From IMG/VR virus record IMGVR_UViG_3300023179_000086, positions 1 through 64,000 of that record: a DNA stretch of 64,000 nucleotides. One strand, 5' to 3'. The notes below the pieces were generated by a model. It was not told the DNA's origin, did not search any database, and was given only the letters and a program-made list of their open reading frames with translations. The DNA is from a virus. Numbering within the stretch: position 1 is the stretch's first letter; each line of letters starts with the position of its first letter. Shown piece by piece: positions 45,302 to 64,000 of this stretch. The position numbers were made by a program, and so were the translations under genes.

Positions 45302-45686
45302 AAATAAACCTAATCTAGAATTTGACATTATACGCACACCTTGGATGGTTGAAAAAATACAAAACAGCAAGGTGTATGCCCAAAATTTGTACGCAGCAAT
45401 ATGTAATAATCGTTTTTTTAAATTAGATGATTCTTTTGCCATCATTAAAGATGAACAAAATTGGTCAGCATCTTGGAGATATGCAGGACAAATTGTTTCA
45501 AACTTAAGGATAGGAGAAGATTACCTTGATTATTATTGCAGTGGTATACATTGGCTAGATAATCATTCTAATATTTCATCTGCCTATACTACAGCAGTTA
45601 GTGGATTTGTTGAAGAAAGTATGGTAACCGATGAAATAAGAGATGATTTATTAAAATTAGGATGGATGGTAAAATCATATGATTAA
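45291..45686 (+). CDS. hypothetical phage protein
   Basis: YAQNLYAAICNN, SWRYAG, DYLDYYCSG motifs. Confidence 0.7.
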   Translation: MDIKNKPNLEFDIIRTPWMVEKIQNSKVYAQNLYAAICNNRFFKLDDSFAIIKDEQNWSASWRYAGQIVSNLRIGEDYLDYYCSGIHWLDNHSNISSAYTTAVSGFVEESMVTDEIRDDLLKLGWMVKSYD

Positions 45687-46591
45687 AATAAATCATTATA
45701 GTTTGTTGTACTTCCAATAATATTTCCAATTATATTTCCCCAAGATATTGAATTTTTAGTTTCGGGTAAAATATAAGATATAATTTTGTGTTTTTCATGA
45801 TTAAATATATAACTTGGCAAATTATCCCACCCATAACTTCTTGTTCTTAATTCAAATTTACCTAATCCTAAACTATTATAAATTTTTTGTTTCAGTACAG
45901 GAACTAGTGCATGCCCATTAAAATTATTAAAAAAATTATCTTTATGTGCATTTAAAAGTATAGAAACACTGTCTATACTATTACCTAACATGTTTCCAAT
46001 CCCATTTATACTCTTTTCTTTCATATATAAATCATAACATTGATAATCATATTTAAATGGACTTAATAAAGGTTTAGTAATCCAAGGCCATGGATAATCT
46101 CCTCCCAATATTGGATATGTATGACACTTTTCTATTAACCAAAAATGACTAGCCACATGAAATTGGTTAATTTTATATATTTTTAAATAATTTAGATATT
46201 GAAAATTATTAAAAAACTTTTCAATATCTAAATCAAAAAAATATTGTTTTAAATGGTTTTCCCTACAAAATTTTTCACTATAATACAAATCAACTATATT
46301 AATAGGATATCCATTTTTTATTAAACGAAGTGTAATTACACTAGTTGGTATTTTTTGTGTAATTAAAAACTTTAACACTAGTTCACTATCAAGTCCTCCA
46401 CTATATAATAATTCACAAGTTCCTCTATAGTCGCCTAAGTTTTTGTAAAATGCTTCAGTAATATTTTTAGATGTTATTTCTTGATCACGGATCTCGCAAT
46501 GATAAGTTGCTGAATGAGTTGAGTTATAGTAATTGTGTGTATGTTTACAAAATTCTCCAATACCACTAAACCAAATATTATTAGTATCCAT
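45683..46591 (-). CDS. PP-loop ATPase (asparagine-synthetase/AANH-like)
   Basis: LLYSGGLDSE; start reassigned to ATG 46591 to avoid overlap with the divergent gene. Confidence 0.8.
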   Translation of the reverse strand: MDTNNIWFSGIGEFCKHTHNYYNSTHSATYHCEIRDQEITSKNITEAFYKNLGDYRGTCELLYSGGLDSELVLKFLITQKIPTSVITLRLIKNGYPINIVDLYYSEKFCRENHLKQYFFDLDIEKFFNNFQYLNYLKIYKINQFHVASHFWLIEKCHTYPILGGDYPWPWITKPLLSPFKYDYQCYDLYMKEKSINGIGNMLGNSIDSVSILLNAHKDNFFNNFNGHALVPVLKQKIYNSLGLGKFELRTRSYGWDNLPSYIFNHEKHKIISYILPETKNSISWGNIIGNIIGSTTNYNDLF

Positions 46592-46610
46592 AAAATTAAT
46601 AAATATCTTA

Positions 46611-47222
46611 ATGATTATATTTACTCCAATTAATTTGCCTATAGTAAAACCTGATAGTTGGGATATATTTTGGAATATTTGGAATAAACACAGTCGAATA
46701 TTAGTTAAAGAAAAAATTAATACTAAAACTACCCCTGCATTAGTAGGAACTAAAAATGTTTGGATTGGTTTAGATATTTTTAAAAAATTTGACATTCCTT
46801 TAGTATATTCAGCACCTTATTTTGATATAAAAGATTCTTTACCAAACCTATTTGAGTCATTAAATAATTTATGCACTAATTTACATACTATAAGATTAGT
46901 TCAAAGTATTACGGATTTTGTGGCACATACGGATGATGACTTAGATAAATGGAGTTTAAGAGCTTTTTTTCATGGGGAAAATGTTTCAGAACAATGGTAC
47001 TTTACAAAACCATACGATAGAAATGGGCAAAGATATTATATTGAAATGCCAAACGACACTAATTGGTTTATGTATAATGACAAATATTGTTGGCATGGGA
47101 CAGATTTTGATTCTACCCGAAAAAAAATAATACTTCAAGTATTTTGTTTTGGATCACCTAATGTTGATTATTTGACTTCAAGCATAGAAAAATATAAATT
47201 ATATACTATAAAATTTTTATGA
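46611..47222 (+). CDS. 2OG-Fe(II)/cupin-fold oxygenase
   Basis: AHTD...WHGT...K facial-triad pattern; ATAAATA at 46599-46605. Confidence 0.65.
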   Translation: MIIFTPINLPIVKPDSWDIFWNIWNKHSRILVKEKINTKTTPALVGTKNVWIGLDIFKKFDIPLVYSAPYFDIKDSLPNLFESLNNLCTNLHTIRLVQSITDFVAHTDDDLDKWSLRAFFHGENVSEQWYFTKPYDRNGQRYYIEMPNDTNWFMYNDKYCWHGTDFDSTRKKIILQVFCFGSPNVDYLTSSIEKYKLYTIKFL

Positions 47223-47977
47223 TTGTTGGATCTACTTCTACAAATATAGCTATTATTACAACATGCTCCGCAGTATTGTCAATATTAGGTTTTTTCCACT
47301 TTAATTTTACTATTAGTAATTGTTTAATTTTTATTTTAAGTTTTTACGTTTTAAATATTTTAGGTAATTGGTTAATGTTACATCGTTACTATTCTCATAA
47401 ATCTTTTGAATTTAAATACGATTTTATAAGAATAATTTTAACATTTTTCACTATTTTAAGTGCAAGAGGAAGTCCTATAGGTTGGGCATATATTCATAGG
47501 AAACACCATAGATTTAGTGATACAGAAAAAGATCCTCATAGTCCCCTACATTTAGGATTAAAATTGTTTGGTTTTCAACATTATAAAAGTATGGAATCAC
47601 AAAACATGGAACTATTTTTAGTTAAAGATTTAATGAATAAAGAACAAATTTTTATACATAAGTATTATGTATTGTTATTATTATTTTGTATTATACCTAT
47701 TAGCCTTTATAGTGTGGAATTATTTTATTTTTTATGGATACTACCAATTACCATTGTTCATTTAAGTCAAAATTTGTTTAATTATTTTGGACATACGTAT
47801 GGTTATAAAAATCATATTACTAACGATAATAGTAAAAACAATTTGTGGTTGTTTCCTTTACTATTAGGTGAAGCTTGGCATAATAATCACCATTATAATC
47901 CAAAATTAAATACAACAAAATTTTTAAAATATGAGTTTGATCCATTAAATATTTTTATACGGTTAGTAAAAAAATGA
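47219..47977 (+). CDS. membrane acyl desaturase (delta-9/OLE1-like) #1, type A
   Basis: His boxes HRYYSH, HRKHH, HNNHH; TM helices. Confidence 0.92.
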   Translation: MIVGSTSTNIAIITTCSAVLSILGFFHFNFTISNCLIFILSFYVLNILGNWLMLHRYYSHKSFEFKYDFIRIILTFFTILSARGSPIGWAYIHRKHHRFSDTEKDPHSPLHLGLKLFGFQHYKSMESQNMELFLVKDLMNKEQIFIHKYYVLLLLFCIIPISLYSVELFYFLWILPITIVHLSQNLFNYFGHTYGYKNHITNDNSKNNLWLFPLLLGEAWHNNHHYNPKLNTTKFLKYEFDPLNIFIRLVKK

Positions 47978-48489
47978 AAGAGTCTGATTTTTTTATAAAA
48001 TTAAATACAATGTCTAATATTACTGAAAATATTTTAAAAATAGTAAAATCATCTGATAATTCAATGTGGAAAGAATTATTTGGACTAACTATTTTTACTT
48101 TAGATATAGATCATTTTAAAAATGATAAAGAAATCTTTCAAGCTATTCAACATTTAGATTGTAAAACTAGGTTAAGCATTTTTAGAACTAATCCAAATAC
48201 TTGTTATGATTGGCATTTTGATAAAATAAGACATTCAGCTATAAACATGTTAATTGATGGATTTGATAGTTTTTGTGCATTTGGAGAATATTCTCTAGGA
48301 AATACGTATAAAAATATTTATAAATTACAATATGAACCAAATTATTACTATTTAATTAATGTAAAAAAAACACATTGTGTTTTTAATTTTTCCAATAATA
48401 TGAGATATATTTTAAGTATTGGGATCCCAAATACAACTTATGAGGATTCAGTAAATTATTTTGTTGAAAAAAAACTAATTACTTTATGA
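47974..48489 (+). CDS. 2OG-Fe(II)/cupin-fold oxygenase
   Basis: WHFD...THCVFN...R. Confidence 0.7.
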   Translation: MKESDFFIKLNTMSNITENILKIVKSSDNSMWKELFGLTIFTLDIDHFKNDKEIFQAIQHLDCKTRLSIFRTNPNTCYDWHFDKIRHSAINMLIDGFDSFCAFGEYSLGNTYKNIYKLQYEPNYYYLINVKKTHCVFNFSNNMRYILSIGIPNTTYEDSVNYFVEKKLITL

Positions 48490-49070
48490 AAACTAGACAA
48501 TTATTAGGACCTGAAGACTTTGACAAGTTTAAATTATTATTAACATGTCATAAGAAAATTGGCGGCACACAAGCATTAAATATAGAAAGTTATGAATTAA
48601 TATATAGTAAATATTTTGACTTTAATGAAAACTATAAAATTTTTGGTTATTTTGAAAATAATATTTTAATTAGTTCAATAAGTTTAGCCTATAGAAATAA
48701 CAACACTAGGGGACGATATTGGATGATCTCAGGCTTATTTACTACTAAAAAATATAATATATTCTCTTTTAACAATCCTGAAATTGGATTATTAATTAAA
48801 AAAGCATTTGATATTGCGGAAGAAAATGCATACTATGAATACTATTATTGTATATCTGCACAAGTATCACGTGTATACGAAAGACAAATTGACAAAAATA
48901 ATTATATACCATTACAAAGATATGATAGAATTTCTCTAGATATTGTCCCAAAAAATACTGTACCATCTATAGACCTCTATTTTAAATTAATGGGCGGTAA
49001 AACAAAACCTCATGATATTATAATTAAAAAAAGAGTTTTACAAGAACAATTTCGTAAAAAAATTATTTAA
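48486..49070 (+). CDS. GNAT-like protein
   Basis: GNAT-type pattern (IFGYFEN..LI..I); resembles ORF 53380-54003. Confidence 0.5.
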   Translation: MKTRQLLGPEDFDKFKLLLTCHKKIGGTQALNIESYELIYSKYFDFNENYKIFGYFENNILISSISLAYRNNNTRGRYWMISGLFTTKKYNIFSFNNPEIGLLIKKAFDIAEENAYYEYYYCISAQVSRVYERQIDKNNYIPLQRYDRISLDIVPKNTVPSIDLYFKLMGGKTKPHDIIIKKRVLQEQFRKKII

Positions 49071-49092: not shown

Positions 49093-49869
49093 ATGAAAAA
49101 CTTTTTTGCAAGCAGCACATTGGGTGCACAGATTTTTTTTGTAATTTCTTTAGTAAGTATTTTTTTTGCTACAATACTTTATGGATTTACAATAAAAGAA
49201 CTAGGATTAATAATCTTGGGTTATTTTTTGTATGGCTGTTTAGGAGTGGTAATTACCTTTCATCGATATCTAACTCATAATAGTTTTAAGACACATTCAT
49301 TTATTGTTAAATTATTTTCTATTTTAGGGTGTTTTTCGGGTACAGGAAGTCCTTTAGCGTGGGTGGCAATACATATAAATCATCATCTTAAAAGTGATAA
49401 ACCTGATGACCCACATAGCCCATATTATAGGGGATTTAAAATTTTCACTTTGGATTATGTTGATAATGTTAACATAGATACAAAATGGCGTATGCGCTCT
49501 CTAGTAAAAGATAAATTTCAACAGTTTTTACATCGTTATTATTTTTTAATAAATTTAATTTATAGTATAGTATTGTTTATGTTGGGTGGGATGTACCTAG
49601 TTATATTTTTTCATTGGGCACCTGCAGCACTCACAGCAATTATGAGTAATGTAGTTAATTATTTCGGACACAAACCCAATTGGCTTGGGAGTTTTAGAAC
49701 ATATAATATTAATGATCAAAGCGTAAATAGTTGGTTGTGGGCTATACCAAGTTGGGGAGAAGCATGGCATAATAATCATCATCGATTTCCTAAACGTAGT
49801 TATTTTGGAGAAAAATGGTATCAAGTAGATATATCAGGATTTTTAATTAAACTTATATCAATAAAATAA
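49093..49869 (+). CDS. membrane acyl desaturase #2, type B
   Basis: HRYLTH, HINHH, HNNHH; ATAAATA at 49081-87. Confidence 0.92.
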   Translation: MKNFFASSTLGAQIFFVISLVSIFFATILYGFTIKELGLIILGYFLYGCLGVVITFHRYLTHNSFKTHSFIVKLFSILGCFSGTGSPLAWVAIHINHHLKSDKPDDPHSPYYRGFKIFTLDYVDNVNIDTKWRMRSLVKDKFQQFLHRYYFLINLIYSIVLFMLGGMYLVIFFHWAPAALTAIMSNVVNYFGHKPNWLGSFRTYNINDQSVNSWLWAIPSWGEAWHNNHHRFPKRSYFGEKWYQVDISGFLIKLISIK

Positions 49870-49875
49870 ACTTTT

Positions 49876-50682
49876 ATGTTTTTAGCTCACATTAACTCAG
49901 TAAAACCTAATTCATATTATGTATTAGATCAATTTAACAAAAAAAAAGTTCTTGTAAATTCAGATAAATTTAAATTAATTTCAAATATTTGTCCACATCA
50001 AAATAGTTTAATATCATCTACTGATGGATCAGGTATTAGAGTATGCCCGTATCATAATTGGTCTTTTACAATAGATGGACAATCTATATCTTCAGGTAGA
50101 ACAGAATATTATTGCAAAAATAAAATTAACTTAAAAGAAGAAAACGTTTATTTATGGAATGGATTATTGTTAAGCTCAGATGTTGACTTTTACATTACTG
50201 AAAATTTTGACAATATGGTTTTGATAGAAAATCGAATTGATGTTGTAAAAGCTGATTATCGTATTATTATGGATTTATTTTTAGATGTTGATCACATTCC
50301 ATCTGTGCATAAAGGGGTTTATGATAAAATTGGAATAACAAATTTAAATGTAATGTGGAGTTATTATAACAATGGCAATGTTCAAAAAGTGGATCGAAAT
50401 GCATTGTGGATTGCAATTTATCCATATACAATGATTGAATGGCAATACGGAGCATTATTCATTACCGTCGCTATCCCTAATGGAAATAAATCAAATGTCC
50501 ATATATTTAAATATACAGATAAACAAAATATTGATAAATGGAAATTAAATGAAGATGTTTGGGAAACAGCTTGGTTGCAGGATAAAACACAAGCAGAATT
50601 AATTACTGAATTTCCAAAACATAATCTAGAAACACAAAAAATACATTTTAGGAATTTTTTAAAAGAAAATGGAATTAATTAA
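49876..50682 (+). CDS. Rieske non-heme iron oxygenase (compact)
   Basis: CPH...CPYH Rieske ligands; DVDHIPSVH mononuclear Fe site. Confidence 0.88.
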   Translation: MFLAHINSVKPNSYYVLDQFNKKKVLVNSDKFKLISNICPHQNSLISSTDGSGIRVCPYHNWSFTIDGQSISSGRTEYYCKNKINLKEENVYLWNGLLLSSDVDFYITENFDNMVLIENRIDVVKADYRIIMDLFLDVDHIPSVHKGVYDKIGITNLNVMWSYYNNGNVQKVDRNALWIAIYPYTMIEWQYGALFITVAIPNGNKSNVHIFKYTDKQNIDKWKLNEDVWETAWLQDKTQAELITEFPKHNLETQKIHFRNFLKENGIN

Positions 50683-51580
50683 AAATAATTATTTGTATGG
50701 TACAGGAAATGGTACAACATGGCACGTTAATATTGATCCTCCTACACGCAAGGTAAAAACATATTTTGAAGAAACTTTAGAAGCTGTAAAATATGTTTAT
50801 GAAAATAAAACAGGTAAGTTTCAAGTTTTATTTAGTGGAGGACTTGACAGCCAATATGTATGCGAAGTATTACTATATTTGGGAATGGAATTTGAAATAA
50901 TAATTATTGAATTAAAAAATAATAAAAATGAAATTCTTAATATGCATGATATTAAATATGCATATGAATTTTGTAATTTTAAAAACATTACTCCAACCAT
51001 ATACGATTTGAATTTTGAACAGTTTATCGATACAGATAAAAACATACAAATAGCAGAATCAGTTCAATGTTGTTCGATAGCCATCCCTGCGACAATGTAT
51101 GTAGCTGAAAAAATGGATGGTTTTACATTATTGGGCAATGATCCACCCTATATAAAATATGTACCTGAAAAAAATTATTGGGCATTACAAGAATTAGAAT
51201 ATATTCATAGTTTATTACGATATTATGAAAAATTTAATTTAAATGGTTGTCCTTTTTTATTATCTTATACATCTGAAATGATGCTTTCTTTTTTAATTGA
51301 TCCAACAATTATGAAATTAGGAATGGGTATGATATTAGGTAAAACAGGTAGTAATTCAAGTAAATCGTATGTATTTAATAATGGATCAGGTTTTAATATG
51401 CCTGGTTATGACTTTGTAACCAAATCACGTATAAAATATACAGGATATGAAGAAATTTATCAATCTAATCTAATGAATCATCCAAATTTGCAAATATTTA
51501 AACAATACAGAGAAAAGTGGAATGGAGAATATCTTGAAAATTTTTCAGATGTAATTAATAGATTATCGATAAATCAATAA
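50669..51580 (+). CDS. PP-loop ATPase (asparagine-synthetase/AANH-like)
   Basis: VLFSGGLDSQ; C-terminal R.KYTGYE. Confidence 0.8.
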   Translation: MELIKNNYLYGTGNGTTWHVNIDPPTRKVKTYFEETLEAVKYVYENKTGKFQVLFSGGLDSQYVCEVLLYLGMEFEIIIIELKNNKNEILNMHDIKYAYEFCNFKNITPTIYDLNFEQFIDTDKNIQIAESVQCCSIAIPATMYVAEKMDGFTLLGNDPPYIKYVPEKNYWALQELEYIHSLLRYYEKFNLNGCPFLLSYTSEMMLSFLIDPTIMKLGMGMILGKTGSNSSKSYVFNNGSGFNMPGYDFVTKSRIKYTGYEEIYQSNLMNHPNLQIFKQYREKWNGEYLENFSDVINRLSINQ

Positions 51581-52744
51581 TTAATTATTGATTTTTTTAA
51601 AATTTTCTACTTTTCCGATAAAGTAAGGTTTAATTTGTGTCATAAGACCTGTTTTACTTGAATTCAAGTATATTGAATCAATAGTTGAATAAAAATGTTT
51701 AGTATCAGATGTAATCATATCAAATACTCGTGTAGTGTTATGCAGATCATAAAACCATTGATCATGCTCTCCTAAAATTATTTTTGTTGGTTTTTCTGCT
51801 TGAAATATTTTAGTGTAAGTTGATGGATAAAGTATTGGAATAATGCTTCTTTCGTACTTACTATGTTTAATTCTTTTTTCTACATCGTTTAAAAATTTAT
51901 GATTTTCTGTATTAACCGTATATTTACTTACATCAGTTGTTTCATCTACTGCAGCACGTGCAACAGAATGAGCTTGTTTTATGAGCAAAGCTGTACAAGT
52001 TTTTGCCCAATAAAATGGAACATTGTTAACATTAGAATATTCTCGATCAAAAACGGGTCTTGCCACATTCAATGCCAAATCATTAAAAACCATATAAACT
52101 GAATTATTATCAATAGCAATTTTTGGTTTGTCTATCCCATATACAAACCCAATTTTTAATCCTAAATCTGCTAATTTTACTAAATGTTTTTGTCGCTCTA
52201 ATCTATATCTTGCAATTCCTGAAGGATGAACCCAATCTTCGCTTCTATATAGCCAATCGTCAGTTTTAAAATCTAAAATATCTTGAAAATAATCATGTAA
52301 AGTAATTTTTACTTTAGGATACTCTTTTTCGATTTGTTTAATAAAAGGAATTTGAGCATAATAAGTTTCACTCATAGTGTTTTTATGAGAAGTATCAGTA
52401 TTATTATGTTTAAAGTTGCTAAGACCACTTAACGGTGCTGAAGCAATAATTTCATCAATATGTATATTGTTTCTTAAAAAAGATAAAGCAACATTTCTAC
52501 TATCTGCGCCACCACTGCAAAATACTGCTAGATAATCATAGTTATCTCTAAGTTCTTTTGCTCGTTGCTCATATAATACATGTAGGGAAGTATCAGGTTC
52601 GATAGTCCAATTTACTTTAGAATATTCTTTATCATTAAAATACCATTCTATGTTATATTTATATGGATTTGCTGCAAGAACGGCATCTATTTTATGTAAA
52701 AAAAATTGATTATTTACTTTATAAAATGAATCGTTTTCAATCAT
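51581..52744 (-). CDS. PP-loop ATPase (AANH-like)
   Basis: VFCSGGADS, GIDKP. Confidence 0.8.
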   Translation of the reverse strand: MIENDSFYKVNNQFFLHKIDAVLAANPYKYNIEWYFNDKEYSKVNWTIEPDTSLHVLYEQRAKELRDNYDYLAVFCSGGADSRNVALSFLRNNIHIDEIIASAPLSGLSNFKHNNTDTSHKNTMSETYYAQIPFIKQIEKEYPKVKITLHDYFQDILDFKTDDWLYRSEDWVHPSGIARYRLERQKHLVKLADLGLKIGFVYGIDKPKIAIDNNSVYMVFNDLALNVARPVFDREYSNVNNVPFYWAKTCTALLIKQAHSVARAAVDETTDVSKYTVNTENHKFLNDVEKRIKHSKYERSIIPILYPSTYTKIFQAEKPTKIILGEHDQWFYDLHNTTRVFDMITSDTKHFYSTIDSIYLNSSKTGLMTQIKPYFIGKVENFKKINN

Positions 52745-55316: not shown

Positions 55317-55343
55317 TTAATTTTTTGGTTATATGTCATCTGA

Positions 55344-56746: not shown

Positions 56747-57510
56747 ATTTTAATTAAAAAGTATTTTATAAAATATCCTGGAAGATCCCATTCATATTTT
56801 TTCACTGCATAATATGGACTTTTACTATCGGCATGATGATTATTGTGTAGCCCACTACCTAACATTAAAATATTTACTAAAGTATTGTTCTTACTATCAT
56901 CTTTTGTATCAAAATTCCTATAACCCCATTTATGGCAGACTATGTCTATAAGTAAACTACTAGTATGAAAAGTCCAGACTGCACTTGCGCTTATTAGAAA
57001 AACAGCAATTCTAATGTCTATTATAGCTAATGTAAAATATATTATTGTAACAATTAAAAAATAATACTTATGAAAAAATAAGTGCCAAGGTTCAATCGCT
57101 AAATCTTTAACAAGTTTAGGACTAAATTTAACTGGGATCCAATTAACCAACCAAATATTATACCATTTGTAATGCCTAGGACTTTGTGGATCTTTATTTG
57201 TATCACTATATCTGTGATGTATTCTATGTGTTCCTACCCATCCATAACTACTGCCCAAACAATTCAAACTACCTAATACAAGTAGAATTCTTTCTTTCCA
57301 CAGTTGAGTTTGAAAACTTCTATGTGCAAATAATCTATGAAATCCAATTTCACCACCGATTTTTCCAAATAGAATCCATCCAAGCAAGGATACCCACAAC
57401 CAACCCCAATCCAAATCTAAATAAAATAGTGATAACAATGCTAAATGATGAAATACAATTAATATTTTAAATTGTATGTCCATATTTGGTTTTTTAATAT
57501 TATTAAACAT
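56743..57510 (-). CDS. membrane acyl desaturase #4, type C
   Basis: HRLFAH, HRIHH, HNNHH; IDIVCH. Confidence 0.92.
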   Translation of the reverse strand: MFNNIKKPNMDIQFKILIVFHHLALLSLFYLDLDWGWLWVSLLGWILFGKIGGEIGFHRLFAHRSFQTQLWKERILLVLGSLNCLGSSYGWVGTHRIHHRYSDTNKDPQSPRHYKWYNIWLVNWIPVKFSPKLVKDLAIEPWHLFFHKYYFLIVTIIYFTLAIIDIRIAVFLISASAVWTFHTSSLLIDIVCHKWGYRNFDTKDDSKNNTLVNILMLGSGLHNNHHADSKSPYYAVKKYEWDLPGYFIKYFLIKI

Positions 57511-58286
57511 TATAAAAAATTACCATTGTAGGATGAAATTGATTTTTCAATCAGTTTTTCTAATTTTGGATTATCTCTTGTGTCATTGTATATAAGAACA
57601 TCAAATCTATGTTCATTACTATAGTTTTTATACGAATGTTGGTGATAACTATTTAAAAACCAAATTTTTTTTATAGATAAATTCTCAACAAAATATCTAC
57701 TATCATTTTGATAATATTCTAAATCTTTAAAATGATAGCGATCTTCATGTACTTCTTTAGTAACAATATGAACTACTTTGCTATTAGTAATTATTGGAAT
57801 ATGCAGTATACATTGCTCAGGTGTATTATATTTTTTAATTAGTGGATCATTTTGATGACTATGCCATCCTAATGAATGTCCGCCTTCAGATTTAACTATT
57901 TTTGCCATTAACGGTTTATCTGTAATAGAGTTTATTAAGTTTAATAGTATTGGAAATCTTTCAGCAACTTCAGTATAATACCATTTTTGATCTTCAAGAG
58001 GCCATGAATAATATTCTTCTAACACTGTTTTTTCTTCGTTTTTCCATCTAGCAAAATGTTCTCTTACTATCGATGAACTTTTAAATTTATGAATTGTTGT
58101 CAATGCACAGTGTTTATATGAATTATGTAATTCTTTAAGAAAGGGTGTAAGTTCAAAGTATGGTGGATGGTAATCATACCAAACATTGTTTTTTAATACT
58201 TCATACTTTATACTTTCAAAATCAAAATTAATATCTAAAGTCATAAATGGTATGTTCTTAAGATGTTCAATTATTAGCTGTTTCAT
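57510..58286 (-). CDS. 2OG-Fe(II) oxygenase, Asp/Asn beta-hydroxylase-like
   Basis: WHSH...LHIPIITN...N..HQH...N.S...R. Confidence 0.7.
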   Translation of the reverse strand: MKQLIIEHLKNIPFMTLDINFDFESIKYEVLKNNVWYDYHPPYFELTPFLKELHNSYKHCALTTIHKFKSSSIVREHFARWKNEEKTVLEEYYSWPLEDQKWYYTEVAERFPILLNLINSITDKPLMAKIVKSEGGHSLGWHSHQNDPLIKKYNTPEQCILHIPIITNSKVVHIVTKEVHEDRYHFKDLEYYQNDSRYFVENLSIKKIWFLNSYHQHSYKNYSNEHRFDVLIYNDTRDNPKLEKLIEKSISSYNGNFL

Positions 58287-59043
58287 TTTTAATTAGTAAA
58301 TGTTTGATGATTAGGCCTGGGAGATCAAATTCATCACTTTTATGATTAAAGTAGGGTTCGTTTGGTCGGGCATGATGATTATTATGTAAACCACTACCAC
58401 CTGTTAGTATATTTACAATGAGATTATTTTTGCTCTGATCTTTTGTATTATAATTTCTGTATCCATACTTATGGCATACTATATCAATCAAATACGAACC
58501 AACATGGAATTGAATAACTGATGGTATAATAATTCCAAAAATTAATAATTTAAAATCTATAAATCCAAAAAGTAAAATTACTAAAAACGATAATGTAAAA
58601 TAATATTTGTGTATGAATCTATGCCATGGATCTTTAATTAAATCAGAGATTGATCGGGGATTTACTATAAACGGTTTCCACATAATTAACCATACTTTTA
58701 TAAGTGAATTAAAATAAGGACTATGTGGATCTTTATCGGTGTCGGCGGTGGCATGATGCACACGATGTACGCCACAAAAATGTAAACTACTCCCTACAAA
58801 ATTTAGACTTCCTAATATTAGTAATAACCGTTCTTTCCATTTATCTGTTTTAAAACTTTTGTGAGCAAATAATCTATGGTAACCAATTTCTCCCCCTATT
58901 TTACCTATAACAATGTAAGATAAAAACGTTATCAAAAAATAGTACCATTCTACATTTGATATAAAAAATGCTGTAATAAACAGAACATGTGTTATCAATA
59001 GTAAAAATCTAATTTTAGTTAATGTGCTTAAATGTAACGACAT
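58267..59043 (-). CDS. membrane acyl desaturase #5, type C
   Basis: HRLFAH, HRVHH, HNNHH; IDIVCH. Confidence 0.92.
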   Translation of the reverse strand: MSLHLSTLTKIRFLLLITHVLFITAFFISNVEWYYFLITFLSYIVIGKIGGEIGYHRLFAHKSFKTDKWKERLLLILGSLNFVGSSLHFCGVHRVHHATADTDKDPHSPYFNSLIKVWLIMWKPFIVNPRSISDLIKDPWHRFIHKYYFTLSFLVILLFGFIDFKLLIFGIIIPSVIQFHVGSYLIDIVCHKYGYRNYNTKDQSKNNLIVNILTGGSGLHNNHHARPNEPYFNHKSDEFDLPGLIIKHLLIKNETANN

Positions 59044-59046: not shown

Positions 59047-59418
59047 TTATAAGTTATATAAATTTTTAGCCTCTTTATCAGTAATATTATAAATTTGATA
59101 TATGAATTCAAATTTTTCAGGATGATTTTGAATACTTTTATTATCCTCATAAATTACGTCTAACTGAGTTTTACATTCTTGTGCAATCTCTTCCGACACA
59201 AATACTCTTTCAGTAACTAAAAGATGACTAGCTAAATATCTTTTAAATGCTTTTTGCGTACCATTTACTACATACGAATTGCATATTTCCATATACTTTA
59301 AAATATTATTTGGTTTAAAAATGTAAGGAAACAGAGCGTGTAAAGTTTCATCTACGGTACCTCTAAGAAGACTGTGGTCATTTATAACAGTTGTTGTTTT
59401 ATATACGCAATAACCCAT
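59047..59418 (-). CDS. hypothetical protein heading the leftward desaturase operon
   Basis: ATG 59418 downstream of a minus-strand ATAAATA. Confidence 0.55.
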   Translation of the reverse strand: MGYCVYKTTTVINDHSLLRGTVDETLHALFPYIFKPNNILKYMEICNSYVVNGTQKAFKRYLASHLLVTERVFVSEEIAQECKTQLDVIYEDNKSIQNHPEKFEFIYQIYNITDKEAKNLYNL

Positions 59419-59432
59419 AAAAAAATTCCTAT

Positions 59433-59473
59433 AATATATCAATATTTATTCTACCGATAAATATTGATATATT
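59433..59473. promoter_or_regulatory. 17-bp perfect inverted repeat containing divergent late promoters
   Basis: AATATATCAATATTTAT-N7-ATAAATATTGATATATT. Confidence 0.7.
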
Positions 59474-59490
59474 TATATTATAAAGTAAAG

Positions 59491-60267
59491 ATGTTTTATT
59501 CAAACGTTAAAAGCATAAAAATATTACAGGTTTTAACTACCATTATTACCTGCGGTTTACTTTTTTTAAATTTTAGTTGGTATTGGTGGAGTATATCAAT
59601 TTTTGTGTATTTTTTAACAGGTTGTTTAGGTATTACTATAACATATCATCGATATCTTTCTCATAAAGCATTTAAAATGCCCAAAATATTAGAATATATT
59701 TTTAGTTTTTTTGGTGCTATTGGTGGTACAGGGTCAACTATTGGATGGTTAGCAGTTCATAATGTTCATCACAAATATAGTGATAAAGATAAAGACCCAC
59801 ACAGTCCACATATCCTAGGTTTGAGATTAATGCTTACAAACTATAATTACAAATTTAACCCACTTGATGCTAAAGTATTGCTAAGAGATAAATTTCACAT
59901 TTTCTTACACCAATATTATAATCTAATATTAATAACATGGGCAATCTTATTAATATTAATAGATATAAAAATTTTTCTATTTGTATTCGTTGTACCAATT
60001 TTTTTACAGATTTGGGCAAGTAACATAAGCAATTATGCTAATCATTTGTATGGGTATAAGAATTTCGAAACAACCGAAGGCAGTAAAAATACATGGTGGG
60101 TAAGCGCAATTACTTGGGGAGAAGGATGGCATAATAATCATCATGCAGAACCATGGTCGTATACTTTTCAAAAAAAATGGTGGGAAATTGATATAAGTGG
60201 GTATATAATATATATAATGGTTTTACTGACGGGTAACAAAGCTAGCTTATATAATTCTAAATATTAG
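59491..60267 (+). CDS. membrane acyl desaturase #6
   Basis: HRYLSH, HNVHH, HNNHH. Confidence 0.92.
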   Translation: MFYSNVKSIKILQVLTTIITCGLLFLNFSWYWWSISIFVYFLTGCLGITITYHRYLSHKAFKMPKILEYIFSFFGAIGGTGSTIGWLAVHNVHHKYSDKDKDPHSPHILGLRLMLTNYNYKFNPLDAKVLLRDKFHIFLHQYYNLILITWAILLILIDIKIFLFVFVVPIFLQIWASNISNYANHLYGYKNFETTEGSKNTWWVSAITWGEGWHNNHHAEPWSYTFQKKWWEIDISGYIIYIMVLLTGNKASLYNSKY

Positions 60268-61034
60268 TTATATTTTATAACTTTAATTACTAAACCACTA
60301 ATATCTATTTCATACCATTTTTCACCATAATACCAACGTTTAGGATAACGATGATGATTATTGTGCCATGATTCGCCCCAACTTGGTATAGCCCATACCC
60401 AATTATTAGCACTCCTATCGTTTAAATTATATCGTCTTGATCCACCAAACCAATTGGGCATATGACCTGAAAAGTTAACTATGTTACTCATAAACACCGA
60501 GAGTACAACAGGTGCCCAATGTAGAAATATCATTAAATACCATCCACCGATTAAGTATAATAACCCACTCCAACTAAGTAATATCAAAACATAATAACGA
60601 TGTAAAAAACGATGGTAAGGATCTGATATTAATTCACGCATGCGCCATTTTACAGAATGGTCCATGGGGTAACGATGAAAAAACAATTTCCAACCATAAA
60701 CGTATGGTGTATGTGGATCATCTTCTTTATCACTTCGTAAATGATGTTTTAAATGTATACTTACCCATACTATACTACTGCCTGTACCTGCCAAACATCC
60801 AAATAATGTGAATAATTTTATAATCCATGGATGTGTGTTATATGCTTTATGTGTGTGAAAACGATGAAATGCTACTACAATACCCAAACAAACGTATATA
60901 AAGTAACCTAATATAGTTAATCCTACTGTTTGCCATGTAACGCCATAGGTATAAAATGCCCATATACTAGCTACACAACTTGTTGCAAGTAGTGCTTGTG
61001 TAAAATTGTTATTGCTGACATACCATTTTTGCAT
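60264..61034 (-). CDS. membrane acyl desaturase #7, type B
   Basis: HRFHTH, HLKHH, HNNHH; close paralogue of #2. Confidence 0.92.
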   Translation of the reverse strand: MQKWYVSNNNFTQALLATSCVASIWAFYTYGVTWQTVGLTILGYFIYVCLGIVVAFHRFHTHKAYNTHPWIIKLFTLFGCLAGTGSSIVWVSIHLKHHLRSDKEDDPHTPYVYGWKLFFHRYPMDHSVKWRMRELISDPYHRFLHRYYVLILLSWSGLLYLIGGWYLMIFLHWAPVVLSVFMSNIVNFSGHMPNWFGGSRRYNLNDRSANNWVWAIPSWGESWHNNHHRYPKRWYYGEKWYEIDISGLVIKVIKYN

Positions 61035-61042
61035 GTTAGTAT

Positions 61043-61663
61043 TTATTGCTGTTCTTCCACCCATCTAATACTATTCCAATCAGGTTCATAACTCTCATCT
61101 ATTTTATGATAGACAACATATTGCTTAGTGTTATTAATCTTAAGTGGATAATCAACATGAAATTGACCATTGTAAAACAAGCTATTTACATTGCGTTTTT
61201 TCTGTATGCCTAAACCACTCCGTTTAAAATAAGGTATAAGTCGTTTATTATATTCATTAAATGTTAAACACAATGTCTTATAATTTCTTTGTTTTGCCCA
61301 CGCTAGTTGTAGTGGACATAGATGCCGACCAACTAAAAACTGTCCACGATATGATTTATTGACCCAAGTTCTTACACCACCAAGTGCAACATAAGGATCA
61401 AAATCTGATTTGTTTACCCCACTAATGGCAATCATTTCACCAAACTTTAATAAAGCAAATACATCACCATTATCTTGCTTAAATCGATTGCTATGATAAA
61501 TTAAGTACGGTAAGGTTGATGGGTTATTTCCCCAATCATCATCCCACATATTTATATGGCTTGGTTCATCCTTTTCTTGAAATGCATCAAAACAAAATTT
61601 AAGAATAAAATTTTTATGATCAACATGAAAATTATTGTCAAATATACTTAAAGTAGTAAGCAT
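61043..61663 (-). CDS. GNAT-family acyltransferase
   Basis: RTWVNKSYRGQ (CoA-binding motif A-like); LTFNEYN. Confidence 0.7.
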   Translation of the reverse strand: MLTTLSIFDNNFHVDHKNFILKFCFDAFQEKDEPSHINMWDDDWGNNPSTLPYLIYHSNRFKQDNGDVFALLKFGEMIAISGVNKSDFDPYVALGGVRTWVNKSYRGQFLVGRHLCPLQLAWAKQRNYKTLCLTFNEYNKRLIPYFKRSGLGIQKKRNVNSLFYNGQFHVDYPLKINNTKQYVVYHKIDESYEPDWNSIRWVEEQQ

Positions 61664-62418
61664 TATTTTTTAAGAAGTTTAATAATATTACCTGCAATAT
61701 CATATTCCCATGGCTGAACAGTTGTGGTATAGTTAGTACTGTTATGATGGTGATTATTATGCCAACCTTCCCCCCATAAAAACAAATTTAATAACCAACT
61801 ATTTGTACTATTGTCATTAGTTTCAAATGATTTATAACCATTACTATGAGGAACTAAAATAAATGCGGCTGCAGCAAAATGCGTTAAAATAACAGGGATT
61901 GCATAAAAATATATCATTGTTTTAATACTTATTATACTAAGTAAAGTTACCCATATTAAAATTATTAATACGTAATAATCATTTATAAAAACATGTTTTT
62001 TAGTTAACAGATCCTTTATATATTTTTTTTGTATAGTTTCTCCAAAATTTATCATGATAGGCATTAAAACTTTTAATCCAACATTTTTTGGATTATGTGG
62101 ATCATTAATAGTATCTGATTGTTTATGATGTAAACGGTGAATATAACTCCATCCTAATGGACTCCCACGAACTGATAATATAGCCACGATAGTAAAAAAA
62201 TGTTTTAATAAATTTGTTTTAAAAACAAAACTACGATGTGCATAGTAACGATGTAAACCAATTACAAACCCCAAACAACTGAAAATAAAATAACCTATAA
62301 TAATATTAAGTATATCAATTGTTGTTATATCATATGTAACCAATCCATAGATACTTAATAATAAAAAGGAACCATGTAAGATTGATAAATTTAATCCTGT
62401 TGGACGCAAATAATTCAT
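61663..62418 (-). CDS. membrane acyl desaturase #8, type A
   Basis: HRYYAH, HRLHH, HNNHH; shares RGSP.GW.YIHR with #1. Confidence 0.92.
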   Translation of the reverse strand: MNYLRPTGLNLSILHGSFLLLSIYGLVTYDITTIDILNIIIGYFIFSCLGFVIGLHRYYAHRSFVFKTNLLKHFFTIVAILSVRGSPLGWSYIHRLHHKQSDTINDPHNPKNVGLKVLMPIMINFGETIQKKYIKDLLTKKHVFINDYYVLIILIWVTLLSIISIKTMIYFYAIPVILTHFAAAAFILVPHSNGYKSFETNDNSTNSWLLNLFLWGEGWHNNHHHNSTNYTTTVQPWEYDIAGNIIKLLKK

Positions 62419-62421
62419 AAT

Positions 62422-62442
62422 AATATTTAGGTCCTAAATATT
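62422..62442. promoter_or_regulatory. palindromic back-to-back late promoters
   Basis: AATATTTAGG-T-CCTAAATATT; TAAATA 5-7 nt upstream of each divergent ATG. Confidence 0.7.
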
Positions 62443-62447
62443 TCAAT

Positions 62448-63914
62448 ATGCAAATAATACTTTTTACAGACGTAGCAGACACTATTGGTTATGGAAAATA
62501 TGCAGGTACATACAAATTAGCTACAGAATTACGATTACACAGCTACACTTGTCAAGTTATTGATGTGTTTTCTTATTATTCATGGGCACAACTTACATCT
62601 TTAGCAACCAAATTTATAACAAAAGATACTGTATTGGTTGGATTTAGTTGTACGCTAAGCGAAAAAAGAATACATGGTAAAGTATATAACTTTGGAATGG
62701 AGGATCAACGATTTGTAGATTTCCTTACTTATATAAAACAAATTAATCAAAATGTTCGTGTGGCCTTAGGTGGTGCAAGAATGAATAATATATGCCATTG
62801 GCAAGGTGTAGATTATGTTGTATTAAATAAAGCAGATCGAGCAATTATCGCTATTGTTGAACATCTTTTATACAAAAAAGAATTAATTACTCATCGTCAA
62901 AGTCCATCGTTTCTTGTAGATGGTAACGACTACCCATATAACCAAGAAGATTTTAGTCGTAGCCAAATTATTTTTGAACCTAATGATATCATTTTTCAAA
63001 ACGAAGCACTTCCTATTGAAGTTAGTCGTGGTTGTATCTTTCAATGCGCATTCTGTAGATACGATCACATCGGTAAAAAAATTGGAGAATGGCAAAAAAC
63101 TGCGGATACTTTACGCAACGAATTTCTTCGCAACTATGAATTATATGGTACAACGAATTACATGTTTAGTGATGAGTTAATTAATGAAAGTTTAGACAAG
63201 ATGAATTTTTTGTGTGAAGTAGTGAGTAGTTTACCATTTAAGTTGCAGTATACGAGTTACGCTAGGATTGATTTAATATGGCGATACCCTCAAATGCGTG
63301 AATTATTGTTAGAAAGTGGTGCTATTAGTTTGCAATTTGGTATAGAAACATTGAATGAATCAGTAGGAAAAAAGATTGGTAAAGGATTAGCTACACAAAA
63401 AATTAAAGATACTTTAAGTTATTGTGGTGAATTATGGAAAGATAAAATTATTATGGCAAGCAATTTTATTGTAGGGTTACCCAACGAAACTGAAGAAAGT
63501 ATTTGGAATACAGTAAATTATTTAGTAAGTGACGAATGTAAATTAGATATATTTGGATTTCTGCCATTGGCAATAAAAGTAGAAGATGATGGTAGAAAAT
63601 CAAGTAAAATAGATCGAGATCCAAAAAATTTTGGATATACTATTGTTGCAACAAATGATTGGGATAATGGGCACATGAAATATGAAGATGCTAAAAAATT
63701 AGTACACAGAATTTGGAGAGATCCAAGAGTTCAAAAAAAAGCTAAATTTGGGGCAGCAACTTGGATTGGGAGAATTATTAATCTAGGATATTCATTAGAG
63801 GAAATTTTTATCTTATTAAATGGAAATCTTACTCAACATGAACTATCAACTTTTTTTAAAGACAAAACACTTTCAAAAAAATTAGAATATTATAACAAAT
63901 TAATGGAATTATAA
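62448..63914 (+). CDS. radical SAM enzyme with B12-binding-like N-terminal domain
   Basis: SRGCIFQCAFC (CxxxCxxC), FGIET, FIVGLPNET. Confidence 0.88.
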   Translation: MQIILFTDVADTIGYGKYAGTYKLATELRLHSYTCQVIDVFSYYSWAQLTSLATKFITKDTVLVGFSCTLSEKRIHGKVYNFGMEDQRFVDFLTYIKQINQNVRVALGGARMNNICHWQGVDYVVLNKADRAIIAIVEHLLYKKELITHRQSPSFLVDGNDYPYNQEDFSRSQIIFEPNDIIFQNEALPIEVSRGCIFQCAFCRYDHIGKKIGEWQKTADTLRNEFLRNYELYGTTNYMFSDELINESLDKMNFLCEVVSSLPFKLQYTSYARIDLIWRYPQMRELLLESGAISLQFGIETLNESVGKKIGKGLATQKIKDTLSYCGELWKDKIIMASNFIVGLPNETEESIWNTVNYLVSDECKLDIFGFLPLAIKVEDDGRKSSKIDRDPKNFGYTIVATNDWDNGHMKYEDAKKLVHRIWRDPRVQKKAKFGAATWIGRIINLGYSLEEIFILLNGNLTQHELSTFFKDKTLSKKLEYYNKLMEL

Positions 63915-64000
63915 TGATACAAGAAAATAAACTCATTGGTTTTAGTAATGCGGAAACAACTTATTTTGCATACGAATCATTGCCATTGTGCGGCATTGGT
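63914..64000 (+). CDS. partial ORF running off the window
   Basis: TAATG-coupled ATG; open to the end (MIQENKLIGF...). Confidence 0.55.
   Translation, partial: MIQENKLIGFSNAETTYFAYESLPLCGIG

Follow-up and report, generated by a model that had tools for sequence, protein, structure and literature searches.

A packed island of desaturase and other enzyme genes in a freshwater jumbo phage: a possible toolkit for tailoring fatty-acyl chains

We analysed a window of 64,000 bases (positions 1 to 64,000) from IMG/VR record IMGVR_UViG_3300023179_000086, a virus record of 73,399 bases (~73 kb) that is a fragment of a jumbo myovirus and is 12% complete. Positions 45,683-63,914 of the window hold a tightly packed island, 99% coding and with ~23 enzyme genes: eight SCD-type desaturases, a FabF-like ketosynthase (KS), three PP-loop (asparagine-synthetase-like) enzymes, three GNAT-fold proteins and four HxD...H beta-helix oxygenase-like proteins, along with a Rieske protein, a cupin and a B12-type radical SAM enzyme. 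Overlaps occur at 12 of 22 gene junctions, and the genes are packed into translationally coupled operons. HMM and structure searches confirmed this 18-kb enzyme island and the families listed for it in a preliminary description, with graded support for the GNATs and oxygenases. The island had been placed directly after virion genes, which was not confirmed: the preceding genes are PolB, helicases, RNR, HNH, aldolase, a SleB-type hydrolase and two large ORFs without assigned function. The features, with strand in brackets, are:

44422..45069 (+), SleB-type cell-wall hydrolase, conserved left border; Pfam Hydrolase_2 7.3e-22; precedes the island in many viral loci
45291..45686 (+), u131, 131-aa protein, left border with SleB; SleB-u131 precede the island in viral loci
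45683..46591 (-), PPa, PP-loop ATPase, SGGLDS motif; family profile A7 matches; probable ATG 46591
46611..47222 (+), u229, HxD...H beta-helix, 2OG/Asp-hydroxylase-type oxygenase-like; H106, D108, H162, K172 invariant in 20 sequences
47219..47977 (+), Des1, SCD-type desaturase; PF00487 9e-14; nine His; Des1/Des8 viral clade
47974..48489 (+), u171, HxD...H beta-helix oxygenase-like; H81, D83, H134, R144 invariant in 17 sequences
48486..49070 (+), u194, possibly GNAT-like; profile A6 matches N-acetyltransferase 4lua, E 0.004
49093..49869 (+), Des2, SCD-type desaturase; PF00487 6.5e-17; Des2/Des7 clade, 27 rows, support 100
49876..50682 (+), Rieske [2Fe-2S] oxygenase-like protein; PF00355 9.2e-9
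50669..51580 (+), PPb, PP-loop ATPase, SGGLDS motif; PPa/PPb profile, hhalign A2 vs A7
51581..52744 (-), PPc, asparagine-synthetase-type synthetase domain, SGGADS motif, without glutaminase domain; AF2 model
52752..53378 (-), cupin-fold protein; Cupin_2 1.8e-7
53380..54003 (-), u207, GNAT-fold protein; Atlas neighbours GNAT at TM 0.61-0.66; model pLDDT 0.59 (poor)
53990..55204 (-), FabF-like beta-ketoacyl synthase (KS); PF00109 3.8e-26, PF02801 1.8e-21, both KS domains
55344..56159 (-), Des3, SCD-type desaturase; PF00487 1.3e-17; long branch in tree; Asn to Thr
56156..56746 (-), u196, HxD...H oxygenase-like; hhalign to fam4 95.4%; 56% identical to L257 counterpart
56743..57510 (-), Des4, SCD-type desaturase; PF00487 3.5e-16; Des4/Des5 clade; Asn to Asp
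57510..58286 (-), u258, oxygenase-like beta-helix protein; hhalign u171-u258 86.8%, u258-fam11 82.4%; 65% identical to L257 counterpart
58267..59043 (-), Des5, SCD-type desaturase; PF00487 9.5e-18; Des4/Des5 clade; Asn to Asp
59047..59442 (-), u131b, 131-aa protein, head of operon; 42% identical to L257 counterpart in the same position
59464..60267 (+), Des6, SCD-type desaturase; PF00487 2.4e-17; 79% identical to L257 counterpart
60264..61064 (-), Des7, SCD-type desaturase; PF00487 6.4e-14; Des2/Des7 clade
61043..61663 (-), GNAT-fold acyltransferase; AF2 model pLDDT 92, Foldseek
61663..62418 (-), Des8, SCD-type desaturase; PF00487 4.2e-15; Des1/Des8 clade; Asn to Ile
62448..63914 (+), radical SAM enzyme, B12-binding (class B); PF04055 9.4e-13

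The 370-aa and 229-aa ORFs overlap on opposite strands, with likely starts at 46591 and 46611; the PPa ORF extends to 46795, its likely start being the ATG at 46591. In the gap at 55205..55343 (-), the translation resembles the C-terminal DFSGW...K motif of Des3, which suggests a remnant of a desaturase C-terminus.

The host of the island is an uncultured giant freshwater phage, and the island is genuine phage DNA without misassembly. PolB of the record is 42-49% identical to that of jumbo phages, and the order SleB-u131-island recurs in dozens of viral contigs, including near-complete genomes of 335-349 kb and a 348.7-kb genome rated 100% complete; the u131 family, which has no Pfam match, is present in 26 loci. 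A junction artefact near 45.7 kb, be it an assembly chimera or host DNA fused to a phage contig, had been named as a concern, and G+C is slightly lower in the island (0.25-0.30 vs 0.29-0.35 upstream). Against it, border genes and island families follow one another in many independent viral contigs, an 8.4-kb metagenome contig from another study spans 45561-53957 at flat depth (12.5-16), and cellular desaturases are at most 35% identical to those of the island, so that such an artefact is almost certainly not the explanation. The right end of the island is a tRNA array ~3 kb beyond the window end.

All eight desaturase ORFs passed the Pfam FA_desaturase cut-off (52.3-65.3 bits vs 29.7), and they are the only FA_desaturase matches in the entire 73,399-base record. 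The motifs HRxxxH, HxxHH and HNNHH and a lone His are kept in each, which makes nine invariant His, and a profile built from the eight finds mouse and human SCD1, with E 8e-32 over residues 51-302. Judged from these sequence features, they are intact SCD-type di-iron membrane desaturases, as the three His boxes had first suggested. In the tree, the viral desaturase clade is separated from 25 cellular rows (support 99), and the window desaturases sit in separate clades representing at least five viral subfamilies, with orthologues 40-79% identical. Across the alignment, 129 of 131 viral rows keep all nine His. The Asn before the sixth His, present in 26 of 27 cellular rows, is T, D, D and I in Des3, Des4, Des5 and Des8, an active-site change in four of the eight. 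Tree and active-site changes together bear out the earlier view that the paralogues are diverged, and indicate old viral subfamilies (at least five) rather than redundant copies.

The KS has both KS domains, and its Cys/His/His triad lines up with that of FabF 1ox0, in agreement with the intact triad described before; against TIGR03150 it scores 247.7 bits, under the cut-off of 493.75. The three SGGxDS PP-loop ATPases were likewise upheld. The PPc model (AF2, pLDDT 91.7) aligns with AsnB (Z 11.2), beta-lactam synthetase (Z 9.1) and carbapenam synthetase (Z 8.5) in VIA-align, and its 173 homologues are all without functional names. For PPa and PPb, family profile A7 matches NAD synthetase at 3.2e-6, as well as MnmA, TtuA and QueC; hhalign relates A2 to A7 at 91% probability, and the PPb family has 66 members across 57 loci.

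The three proposed GNAT-like proteins fared unequally. Structural modelling strongly supports a GNAT identity for 61043-61663 (489 Foldseek matches at E<=1e-3, top 5e-8, all those listed being GNAT/acetyltransferase, with FeeM at rank 46), which occurs as a single copy in each of 60 loci. The case is moderate for u207, predicted to be a GNAT from its Atlas structural neighbours, all GNAT families among those listed; the start of its gene and the stop of KS share 14 nt, and the gene that follows KS in contig L257 of another phage encodes a protein 62% identical to it. It is weak for u194, a tentative sequence-based assignment; in two relatives (L053 and L056) u194 and a u229-type protein form a fusion. 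The four proteins first called 2OG-Fe(II)-type oxygenases (u229, u171, u196, u258) have no Pfam match, and it is their HxD...H beta-helix oxygenase-like fold that is supported, by the invariant HxD...H plus R/K, the profile network and Asp/Arg-hydroxylase-like structural neighbours. Atlas neighbours of u229 carry PF05118 or PF13640 (TM 0.59-0.71), and u171 matches the PDB "Beta-hydroxylase" 7v4f (E 0.015) and fam4 (hhalign 97.5%). The Rieske, cupin and radical SAM domains all pass Pfam, as expected from the earlier reading; the Rieske homologue in relative G007 also has a weak Ring_hydroxyl_A match, and the radical SAM enzyme matches PhpK-family (2e-19) and other B12-rSAM families of NCBIfam, all under their own cut-offs.

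Linkage between KS and desaturases in another phage was corroborated by a nine-gene block (Des6 / u131b-Des5-u258-Des4-u196-Des3-KS-u207) collinear in L257/L258 at 42-79% identity, in which Des and oxygenase-like genes alternate and overlap within one operon; u131b, at its head, has no Pfam or PHROG match. Linkage of desaturases with GNAT, PP-loop, oxygenase and radical SAM genes also recurs in other phages, and is frequent rather than obligatory. A desaturase was found in 82 sources, made up of 80 Des-anchored loci plus the window and its tail; of these, 60 have the GNAT and 57 have PPa/PPb, counts biased by the choice of loci by likeness to Des1. From the other side linkage is loose, which counts against a joint acyl-tailoring function: of 79 PPc-anchored loci 42 have a desaturase and 37 do not, of 80 KS-anchored loci only 15 have one, and PPc often occurs in 2-4 copies without a desaturase. 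Complete relatives have 2-5 desaturase matches, and one rated 100% complete (G001) has two desaturases, no KS and no ACP, again counting against such a function.

In the 73.4-kb record we found no ACP, AcpS, FAAL, thioesterase, rubredoxin or ferredoxin, nor an ACP between Des3 and KS in L257, and both results weigh against acyl tailoring; the search for ACP or FAAL downstream of the window, proposed earlier, gave none up to the tRNA array. KS-bearing relatives also carry AcpS, ACP, FabA or rubredoxin, one of them with 11 desaturases. G006 has KS, six Des, ACP and Des in a single run, plus AcpS, rubredoxin and rubrerythrin (11 desaturase-like genes in total), and G007 has ACP-Des, Rieske, PP-loop, FabA, ACP, KS and AcpS; no FAAL or thioesterase was found in either. 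ACP genes adjoin Des3-clade desaturases in four more contig sets (e.g. L049, L043, L052). The relatives' own AcpS, ACP, FabA and rubredoxin fit work on a carrier-bound acyl chain.

Our best explanation, with a probability of about 0.5, is that the island is a modular accessory toolkit of a freshwater jumbo-phage lineage for tailoring fatty-acyl chains, by a mechanism that we infer from gene content. During infection, KS would extend a fatty-acyl chain carried either by host ACP or by one that the phage may encode beyond the fragment seen here; AcpS and ACP genes of their own are present in relatives. The desaturases would together introduce unsaturation at several chain positions, and some of the paralogues may catalyse different di-iron reactions; oxidation or methylation of the chain would fall to the soluble oxygenases and the radical SAM enzyme, the GNAT-type enzyme would hand the chain to an amine, and PP-loop enzymes would make further amide bonds.

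A hyperplastic region of helper genes is possible though not very likely: each desaturase alone would retune the host membrane (acting on host phospholipids or acyl-CoA for fluidity or composition, e.g. in cold fresh water), KS would boost host fatty-acid synthesis, and the GNAT, PP-loop, oxygenase and radical SAM genes would be unrelated neighbours. Single viral Delta9 desaturases acting on host lipids are documented in PMC5776448, and PMC7029224 lists fabF and stearoyl-CoA desaturase in freshwater pelagimyophages and, as a point against the toolkit, Asp/Asn hydroxylase and 2OG genes without known use in aquatic myophages. Gene content that differs from phage to phage, the few desaturases of complete relatives, PPc loci devoid of them and a record that yielded no carrier or release enzymes all suit this account and speak against the toolkit. 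However, 8-11 paralogues of old subfamilies, some with altered active sites, exceed the needs of fluidity tuning, and neither the alternating, overlapping and collinear operon nor relatives' runs with private AcpS, ACP, FabA and rubredoxin would be expected of it. It is unlikely that the AsnB-like, radical SAM, Asp/Asn-hydroxylase-like and GNAT enzymes have as their target a peptide or a protein of phage or host, with the desaturase-KS module supplying a lipid to attach. Lasso peptides are cyclised by AsnB homologues, and SPASM enzymes have peptides as substrates; by fold, PPc lies closest to the group of AsnB, beta-lactam synthetase and carbapenam synthetase, 11 loci of relatives contain 22 genes of a radical SAM family that has a SPASM match, a u229 structural-neighbour cluster that carries PF05118 includes Nif11 in 14% of its members, and islands contain multi-copy ~100-aa protein families. 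Yet these families resemble folded small proteins, we identified no peptide with the leader and core pattern of a precursor, a Pfam search of island ORFs gave no protease or transporter in the block, and we know of no peptide substrate for membrane desaturases.

A thiotemplated route to a polyyne or alkyne, of the jamABC or cay/pgn kind, is very unlikely; in it the desaturases would be acetylenases on an ACP-bound chain and the product a reactive toxin or signal. Known cassettes, as described in PMC9828172 and PMC8406139, combine three cooperating membrane desaturases, an ACP-bound acyl chain and a rubredoxin or ferritin partner, and G006 has ACP, many desaturases, rubredoxin and the ferritin-like rubrerythrin side by side. 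The acetylenase analogy drawn earlier nevertheless failed: four defining parts of the cassette (FAAL, ACP, thioesterase, rubredoxin) are absent from this record, no FAAL or thioesterase was found in G006 or G007, and KS stands in these phages where the cassette has FAAL.

Thus, of the polyunsaturated or oxygenated acyl-group pathway first proposed, the polyyne product is not upheld and attachment to virion proteins is unsupported, whereas phage DNA, old paralogues, recurrent linkage, the collinear KS operon and relatives' carrier genes favour the acyl-tailoring toolkit. The claim that no such phage system had been described stands for the arrays: multi-desaturase phage arrays did not appear in the literature searched, where the viral desaturase and fabF genes described are all single ones (PMC5776448, PMC7029224). 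The outcome of the toolkit would be a phage-specified unsaturated, oxygenated lipid, probably amide-linked or of the membrane, and in the infected cell the island probably serves to make or remodel unusual unsaturated lipids.

The island of enzyme genes packs 23 ORFs into 45,683-63,914, with 99% of the sequence coding and overlaps at 12 of the 22 junctions. Domain, profile and structure searches bore out the enzyme inventory of the preliminary description; the ORFs discussed by name are as follows.

45683-46591, minus strand, PP-loop enzyme PPa
46611-47222, plus strand, oxygenase-like protein u229
47219-47977, plus strand, desaturase Des1
47974-48489, plus strand, oxygenase-like protein u171
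48486-49070, plus strand, weakly GNAT-like protein u194
49093-49869, plus strand, desaturase Des2
50669-51580, plus strand, PP-loop enzyme PPb
51581-52744, minus strand, PP-loop enzyme PPc
53380-54003, minus strand, GNAT-like protein u207
53990-55204, minus strand, FabF-like ketosynthase KS
55344-56159, minus strand, desaturase Des3
56156-56746, minus strand, oxygenase-like protein u196
56743-57510, minus strand, desaturase Des4
57510-58286, minus strand, oxygenase-like protein u258
58267-59043, minus strand, desaturase Des5
59047-59442, minus strand, small protein u131b
59464-60267, plus strand, desaturase Des6
60264-61064, minus strand, desaturase Des7
61043-61663, minus strand, protein with a clear GNAT fold
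61663-62418, minus strand, desaturase Des8

The window takes in the first 64,000 of the 73,399 bases of a record that is low in G+C and rated 12% complete, and whose PolB is 42-49% identical to PolB of jumbo myoviruses of 350-490 kb. Upstream of the island lie genes for PolB, helicases, both RNR subunits, an HNH nuclease, an aldolase, a 909-aa and an 890-aa ORF and a SleB-type hydrolase; none of these was identified as a virion gene, and the earlier statement that the island directly follows virion genes was not borne out. The two ORFs of about 900 aa (33031-35703 and 41631-44360), which might encode structural or host-contact proteins, have no clear family, the former giving a weak C1q-like match (E 2.3e-4, under the cut-off) and the latter belonging to a family found upstream of SleB in 16 loci. 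Past the window end come one more HxD...H protein and three unassigned ORFs. An array of nine tRNA genes (Met, Cys, Trp, Arg, Ser, Asn, Thr, Ala and Pro; 66,973-73,228, or 4974-11229 of locus L009) then starts near base 66,973 of the record, with genes for a speH-like AdoMet decarboxylase and for an NAD-dependent epimerase interspersed in it; inside the window there are no tRNA genes. Since this array begins about 3 kb past the window end, the island is about 21 kb long. It runs on beyond the window, as the preliminary description stated, and the stretch up to the tRNA array holds no acyl carrier protein (ACP) or ligase.

Misassembly near 45.7 kb, a concern of the preliminary description, was ruled out, as was a chimera: a run of a different study yielded contigs that together span 41-60 kb with even depth, one of them, 8.4 kb long, bridging the 45.7-kb junction, and the same left border (SleB-u131) and gene families recur in other viral contigs. 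Short skipping joints between paralogous desaturases (sides of 21-34 letters) were read as cross-matches among paralogues or relatives and not as rearrangements.

All eight desaturases match Pfam FA_desaturase above cut-off, with no other match in the whole 73,399-base record. Des2-Des8 are 28-38% identical to Des1, and nine histidines (H55, H60, H93, H96, H97, H192, H221, H224 and H225, in HRxxxH, HxxHH, H and HNNHH) are invariant in 8 of 8 copies; of 131 viral relatives, 129 retain these metal ligands. The desaturase profile aligned over nearly its whole length to the solved stearoyl-CoA desaturases (SCD) 4ymk (E 8e-32, chain residues 51-302) and 4zyo (E 1.6e-28), SCD1 structures whose fold and metal site are common to the phage enzymes, and Des1-Des8 are, judging from their sequences, compact (~250 aa) SCD-type di-iron membrane enzymes. 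Unlike mammalian and bacterial SCD, they lack N- and C-terminal extensions, and in four of the eight an Asn near the sixth His is replaced. This residue, four before the sixth His and aligned with the Asn of the LVNSAAH stretch in SCD1, where we take it to be a metal-site residue, has stayed N in Des1, Des2, Des6 and Des7; Des3 has T in its place, Des4 and Des5 have D, and Des8 has I. Of the 27 cellular rows 26 carry N here, while all 7 rows of the Des8-like group of relatives carry something else. Replacement of the Asn may mark changed chemistry, and in Des3, Des4, Des5 and Des8 argues against eight redundant Delta9 enzymes.

Cellular relatives found were at most 35% identical to the phage desaturases, while orthologues of the window copies in other phages reach 40-79%. 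In a FastTree phylogeny of preselected rows with long branches (131 viral and 27 cellular, the latter every third of 80), 25 cellular rows split from the remainder with support of 99, and the window copies fell into the clades Des1+Des8, Des2+Des7, Des4+Des5, Des6 and Des3. The preliminary description had left room for redundant paralogues, and the separate, old viral clades together with the active-site Asn changed in 4 of 8 copies speak for distinct enzymes. The two 'cellular' rows inside the viral clade come from contigs of 5.6 kb (L090) and 5.7 kb (L102) in bacterial MAGs, possibly pieces of phage DNA that were sorted into the wrong bin.

The ketosynthase matches both PF00109 and PF02801 and resembles FabF 1ox0 most (3.5e-48); its Cys, His and His align with the 1ox0 triad, and C161, H298 and H331 are invariant in its family alignment. 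Its score against the NCBIfam fabF model TIGR03150 (247.7 bits) is half the cut-off of 493.75, and so does not reach equivalog level. Among the homologues listed, it is 40-73% identical to a set of metagenome proteins and 31-40% identical to more distant ones, some of which their source names 3-oxoacyl-ACP synthase II. The 139-nt gap between KS and Des3 (55205-55343, minus strand) has a translation resembling a desaturase C-terminus, perhaps what is left of a ninth copy; an ACP hidden there was ruled out, given this desaturase-like reading and a gap of 14 nt at the same junction in L257, one of the viral loci described below. Contigs of run X8 diverge at about 55316-55431.

Pfam found no domain in the three SGGxDS proteins PPa, PPb and PPc, and a PDB profile search with PPc was empty. 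An AlphaFold model of PPc built from 29 homologues (pLDDT 91.7) gave only weak PP-loop rows in Foldseek (E ~2e-3), and VIA-align was therefore used; the best match was AsnB 1ct9 (Z 11.2 over 284 residues), followed by beta-lactam synthetase, TsnB9 and carbapenam synthetase. As PPc (387 aa) aligns to AsnB residues 119-515 only, it is, on this model, a synthetase half of AsnB type without the N-terminal glutaminase domain. The S, G, G, D and S of SGGxDS are invariant in the PPc alignment, and S, G, G and S in that of PPa and PPb, whose profile matches NAD synthetase (3.2e-6), MnmA, TtuA and QueC and whose family is related to PPc. Unassigned proteins of about 100 aa lie beside PP-loop genes in other loci, as many as eight to a locus (L010, L013, L193, L214, L231 and others), and u131b may be a distant cousin of these.

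Three proteins are GNAT-like to differing degrees. That at 61043-61663 has a clear GNAT fold (489 Foldseek matches at E<=1e-3, best 5e-8), the listed Atlas neighbours of u207, whose model is poor, are all GNATs, and u194 is weakly GNAT-like (E 0.004); Pfam PF00583 scored 17 bits, under its cut-off of 20.7. A comparison of two of the family profiles (A3 and A6, the latter of u194) showed no relation, so the three are not treated as one family. The oxygenase-like proteins u229, u171, u196 and u258 form a family web joined by profile comparison, within which the u171 and u229 profiles (A4 and A5) show no relation and are connected only via other families. Invariant residues are H81, D83, H134 and R144 in u171 and H106, D108, H162 and K172 in u229, that is, HxD...H with a basic residue about 10 after the distal His. 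Pfam gave no match for these proteins; in the PDB profile search the best E for u171 was 0.015 and u229 had no match, and Atlas neighbours of u229 (TM 0.59-0.71) carry PF05118 or PF13640, Asp/Arg-hydroxylase or 2OG domains. In two viral contigs a u229-type and a u194-type protein are fused in one ORF of ~395 aa (L053:10750-11925 and L056:10750-11946), a hint that they work jointly. Rieske and cupin domain proteins, found by Pfam, complete the enzyme list with a radical SAM protein (PF04055, 9.4e-13; motif CIFQCAFC) whose best NCBIfam matches are B12-rSAM families, all far under their cut-offs. A separate family of radical SAM proteins, with a SPASM-type match, forms tandem pairs beside PPc in L180, L185, L211, L220, L222, L242 and other loci, and is absent from the window. 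PHROGs searches with the ten ORFs lacking a Pfam match yielded nothing useful, nor was anything learned from aligning individual window proteins with family profiles by hhalign.

Scanning viral contigs with the desaturase alignment gave at least 585 loci, of which 80 were kept for analysis, and in these the SleB-u131 border and the same gene families recur in varying combinations. Desaturase-anchored loci carry one desaturase in 25 cases, two in 39, three in 12, four in 1, five in 2 and six in 1; near-complete relatives (335-349 kb) have 2-5 matches each, and among whole records the closest relative (G008) has eight and another (G006) ten by Pfam plus one by BLAST. Des6 and the series u131b-Des5-u258-Des4-u196-Des3-KS-u207 are collinear in L257 and L258 at 42-79% protein identity, with differing flanks, and this nine-gene block is the best sign of a functional unit. 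More widespread is a core of GNAT, Des1, oxygenase, Des2, PPb and PPc, which the radical SAM enzyme often joins. The linkage of desaturases to KS, GNAT and PP-loop genes on which the preliminary description leaned does recur in other phages but is not obligatory, a desaturase being present in 42 of 79 PPc-anchored and 15 of 80 KS-anchored loci. The uncharacterised PPc and HxD...H families are large and almost purely viral.

Some relatives add a carrier protein. G006 has a run of a desaturase, KS, six desaturases, an ACP with the canonical DSL motif and a desaturase, followed by a PLP-like ORF, one more desaturase, a rubrerythrin-like ORF and rubredoxin, with AcpS nearby; another related record, G007, combines ACP-Des, Rieske, PP-loop, FabA, ACP and KS genes with those for AcpS and a metallophosphoesterase. 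ACP genes adjoin Des3-clade desaturases in four further contig sets. The record studied here (G000), at 12% completeness, had no PF00550 match at E<=1 and, in tblastn with three phage ACPs, nothing under E 0.3; nor did this small part of the genome hold AcpS, rubredoxin, a ferritin-type partner or a 2Fe-2S ferredoxin. Fatty acyl-AMP ligase (FAAL; PF00501) had no match in G000, G006, G007 or the related record G001, and thioesterase, searched as PF00975, none in these or G008. The rubrerythrin-like ORF, absent from G000 and directly followed by the rubredoxin match in G006, recurs near the islands of many relatives at 65-78% identity (L177:547-1117, from G006, and L010, L040, L188, L193, L200, L235, L236 and L250).

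Aminolipids are made and tailored by the ornithine-lipid enzymes OlsB, OlsC and OlsE and by N-acyl amino acid synthases (FeeM), in which an N-acyltransferase of GNAT or related fold is combined with Asp/Asn-hydroxylase-type and di-iron membrane oxygenases acting on an amide-linked lipid. The island resembles these systems in logic, although FeeM is just rank 46 among the generic GNAT matches of 61043-61663. Viral desaturases are themselves known: cyanophage vFAD Delta9 desaturases are described as fatty-acid desaturase helper genes (Roitman et al., PMC5776448), freshwater pelagimyophages carry fabF and a stearoyl-CoA desaturase (PMC7029224), and Lake Baikal viruses an acyl-CoA desaturase (PMC7678222). 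These aquatic phages, as described there, share with the island PF00487 membrane desaturases, sometimes with fabF, thought to act on host lipids, but have one desaturase per genome, in contrast to eight in 15 kb (8-11 in two relatives) of at least five subfamilies; the island differs further from such single genes in that its operons are conserved and also encode oxygenases, GNATs and PP-loop enzymes. In tblastn against 50,697 GenBank phage records, Des5 had matches in three records only, none from a cyanophage. Freshwater Flavobacterium jumbophages, of which isolates exist, have a syntenic multi-gene island with duplicated ACPs and a metal-dependent phosphohydrolase (PMC13573597), and G007 is like it in having two ACPs and a Metallophos gene beside desaturase and KS genes; the word 'desaturase' is absent from the main text of that paper, and the likeness is one of described gene content. 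Already known, then, from the text of these four sources (PMC5776448, PMC7029224, PMC7678222, PMC13573597) are single viral desaturases or fabF genes and an ACP island, in the main text without desaturases; in the texts searched, we found no report of desaturase arrays in jumbo or huge phages or viral contigs.

We favour the view, at a probability of about one in two, that the island is a toolkit acting on fatty-acyl chains. Bound to a phage ACP in some members and, presumably, to a host ACP here, the chain would be extended, desaturated at several positions, oxidised and then transferred to an amine. That the island is instead a hyperplastic region of plain fluidity helper genes is rather doubtful, but this explanation keeps its weight because gene content is so variable among relatives and linkage is loose. 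A system for modifying peptides or proteins is improbable.

The analogy with polyyne clusters drawn in the preliminary description fares badly, and an alkyne or polyyne pathway is very improbable. Bacterial cassettes of this kind (jamABC, cay, pgn, ccn, col), as defined in PMC8406139 and PMC9828172, comprise jamABC, two desaturases, a thioesterase and rubredoxin, with several membrane desaturases cooperating on one acyl chain. Four of the seven parts are missing from this record, namely FAAL, a dedicated ACP, thioesterase (PF00975) and the rubredoxin or ferritin partner; of what such cassettes require, only three or more desaturases are found, the island having eight. The relatives G006 and G007 come closer, with ACP and a rubredoxin or ferritin partner, yet all differ from the cassettes in that KS (with FabA in G007) takes the loader position, desaturases are far more numerous and amide-forming enzymes are present.

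Extending the acyl-chain toolkit, an unlikely possibility is that a freshwater jumbo-phage lineage encodes a complete self-primed lipid pathway (AcpS, ACP, KS, FabA, up to eleven specialised desaturases, oxygenases, GNAT and amide synthetases) making a phage-specific polyunsaturated, oxygenated N-acyl lipid not made by cells, of which the window phage would be a variant relying on host ACP. Such a lipid could build or alter membrane structure during infection, or act against competitors or grazers. Phage lipid genes have so far been treated as single helpers that nudge membrane fluidity, whereas 8-11 diverged desaturases, arrayed in conserved operons alongside an enzyme for chain extension, oxygenases, acyltransferases and enzymes that form amides, to which relatives add a carrier protein of their own and the enzyme that activates it, point to phages designing their own lipids. 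If so, these lipids would represent a new class of viral metabolites, and the phages would offer a pool of compact desaturases with altered active sites for studying regiochemistry and reaction type, as well as a way into how giant phages reshape host envelopes.
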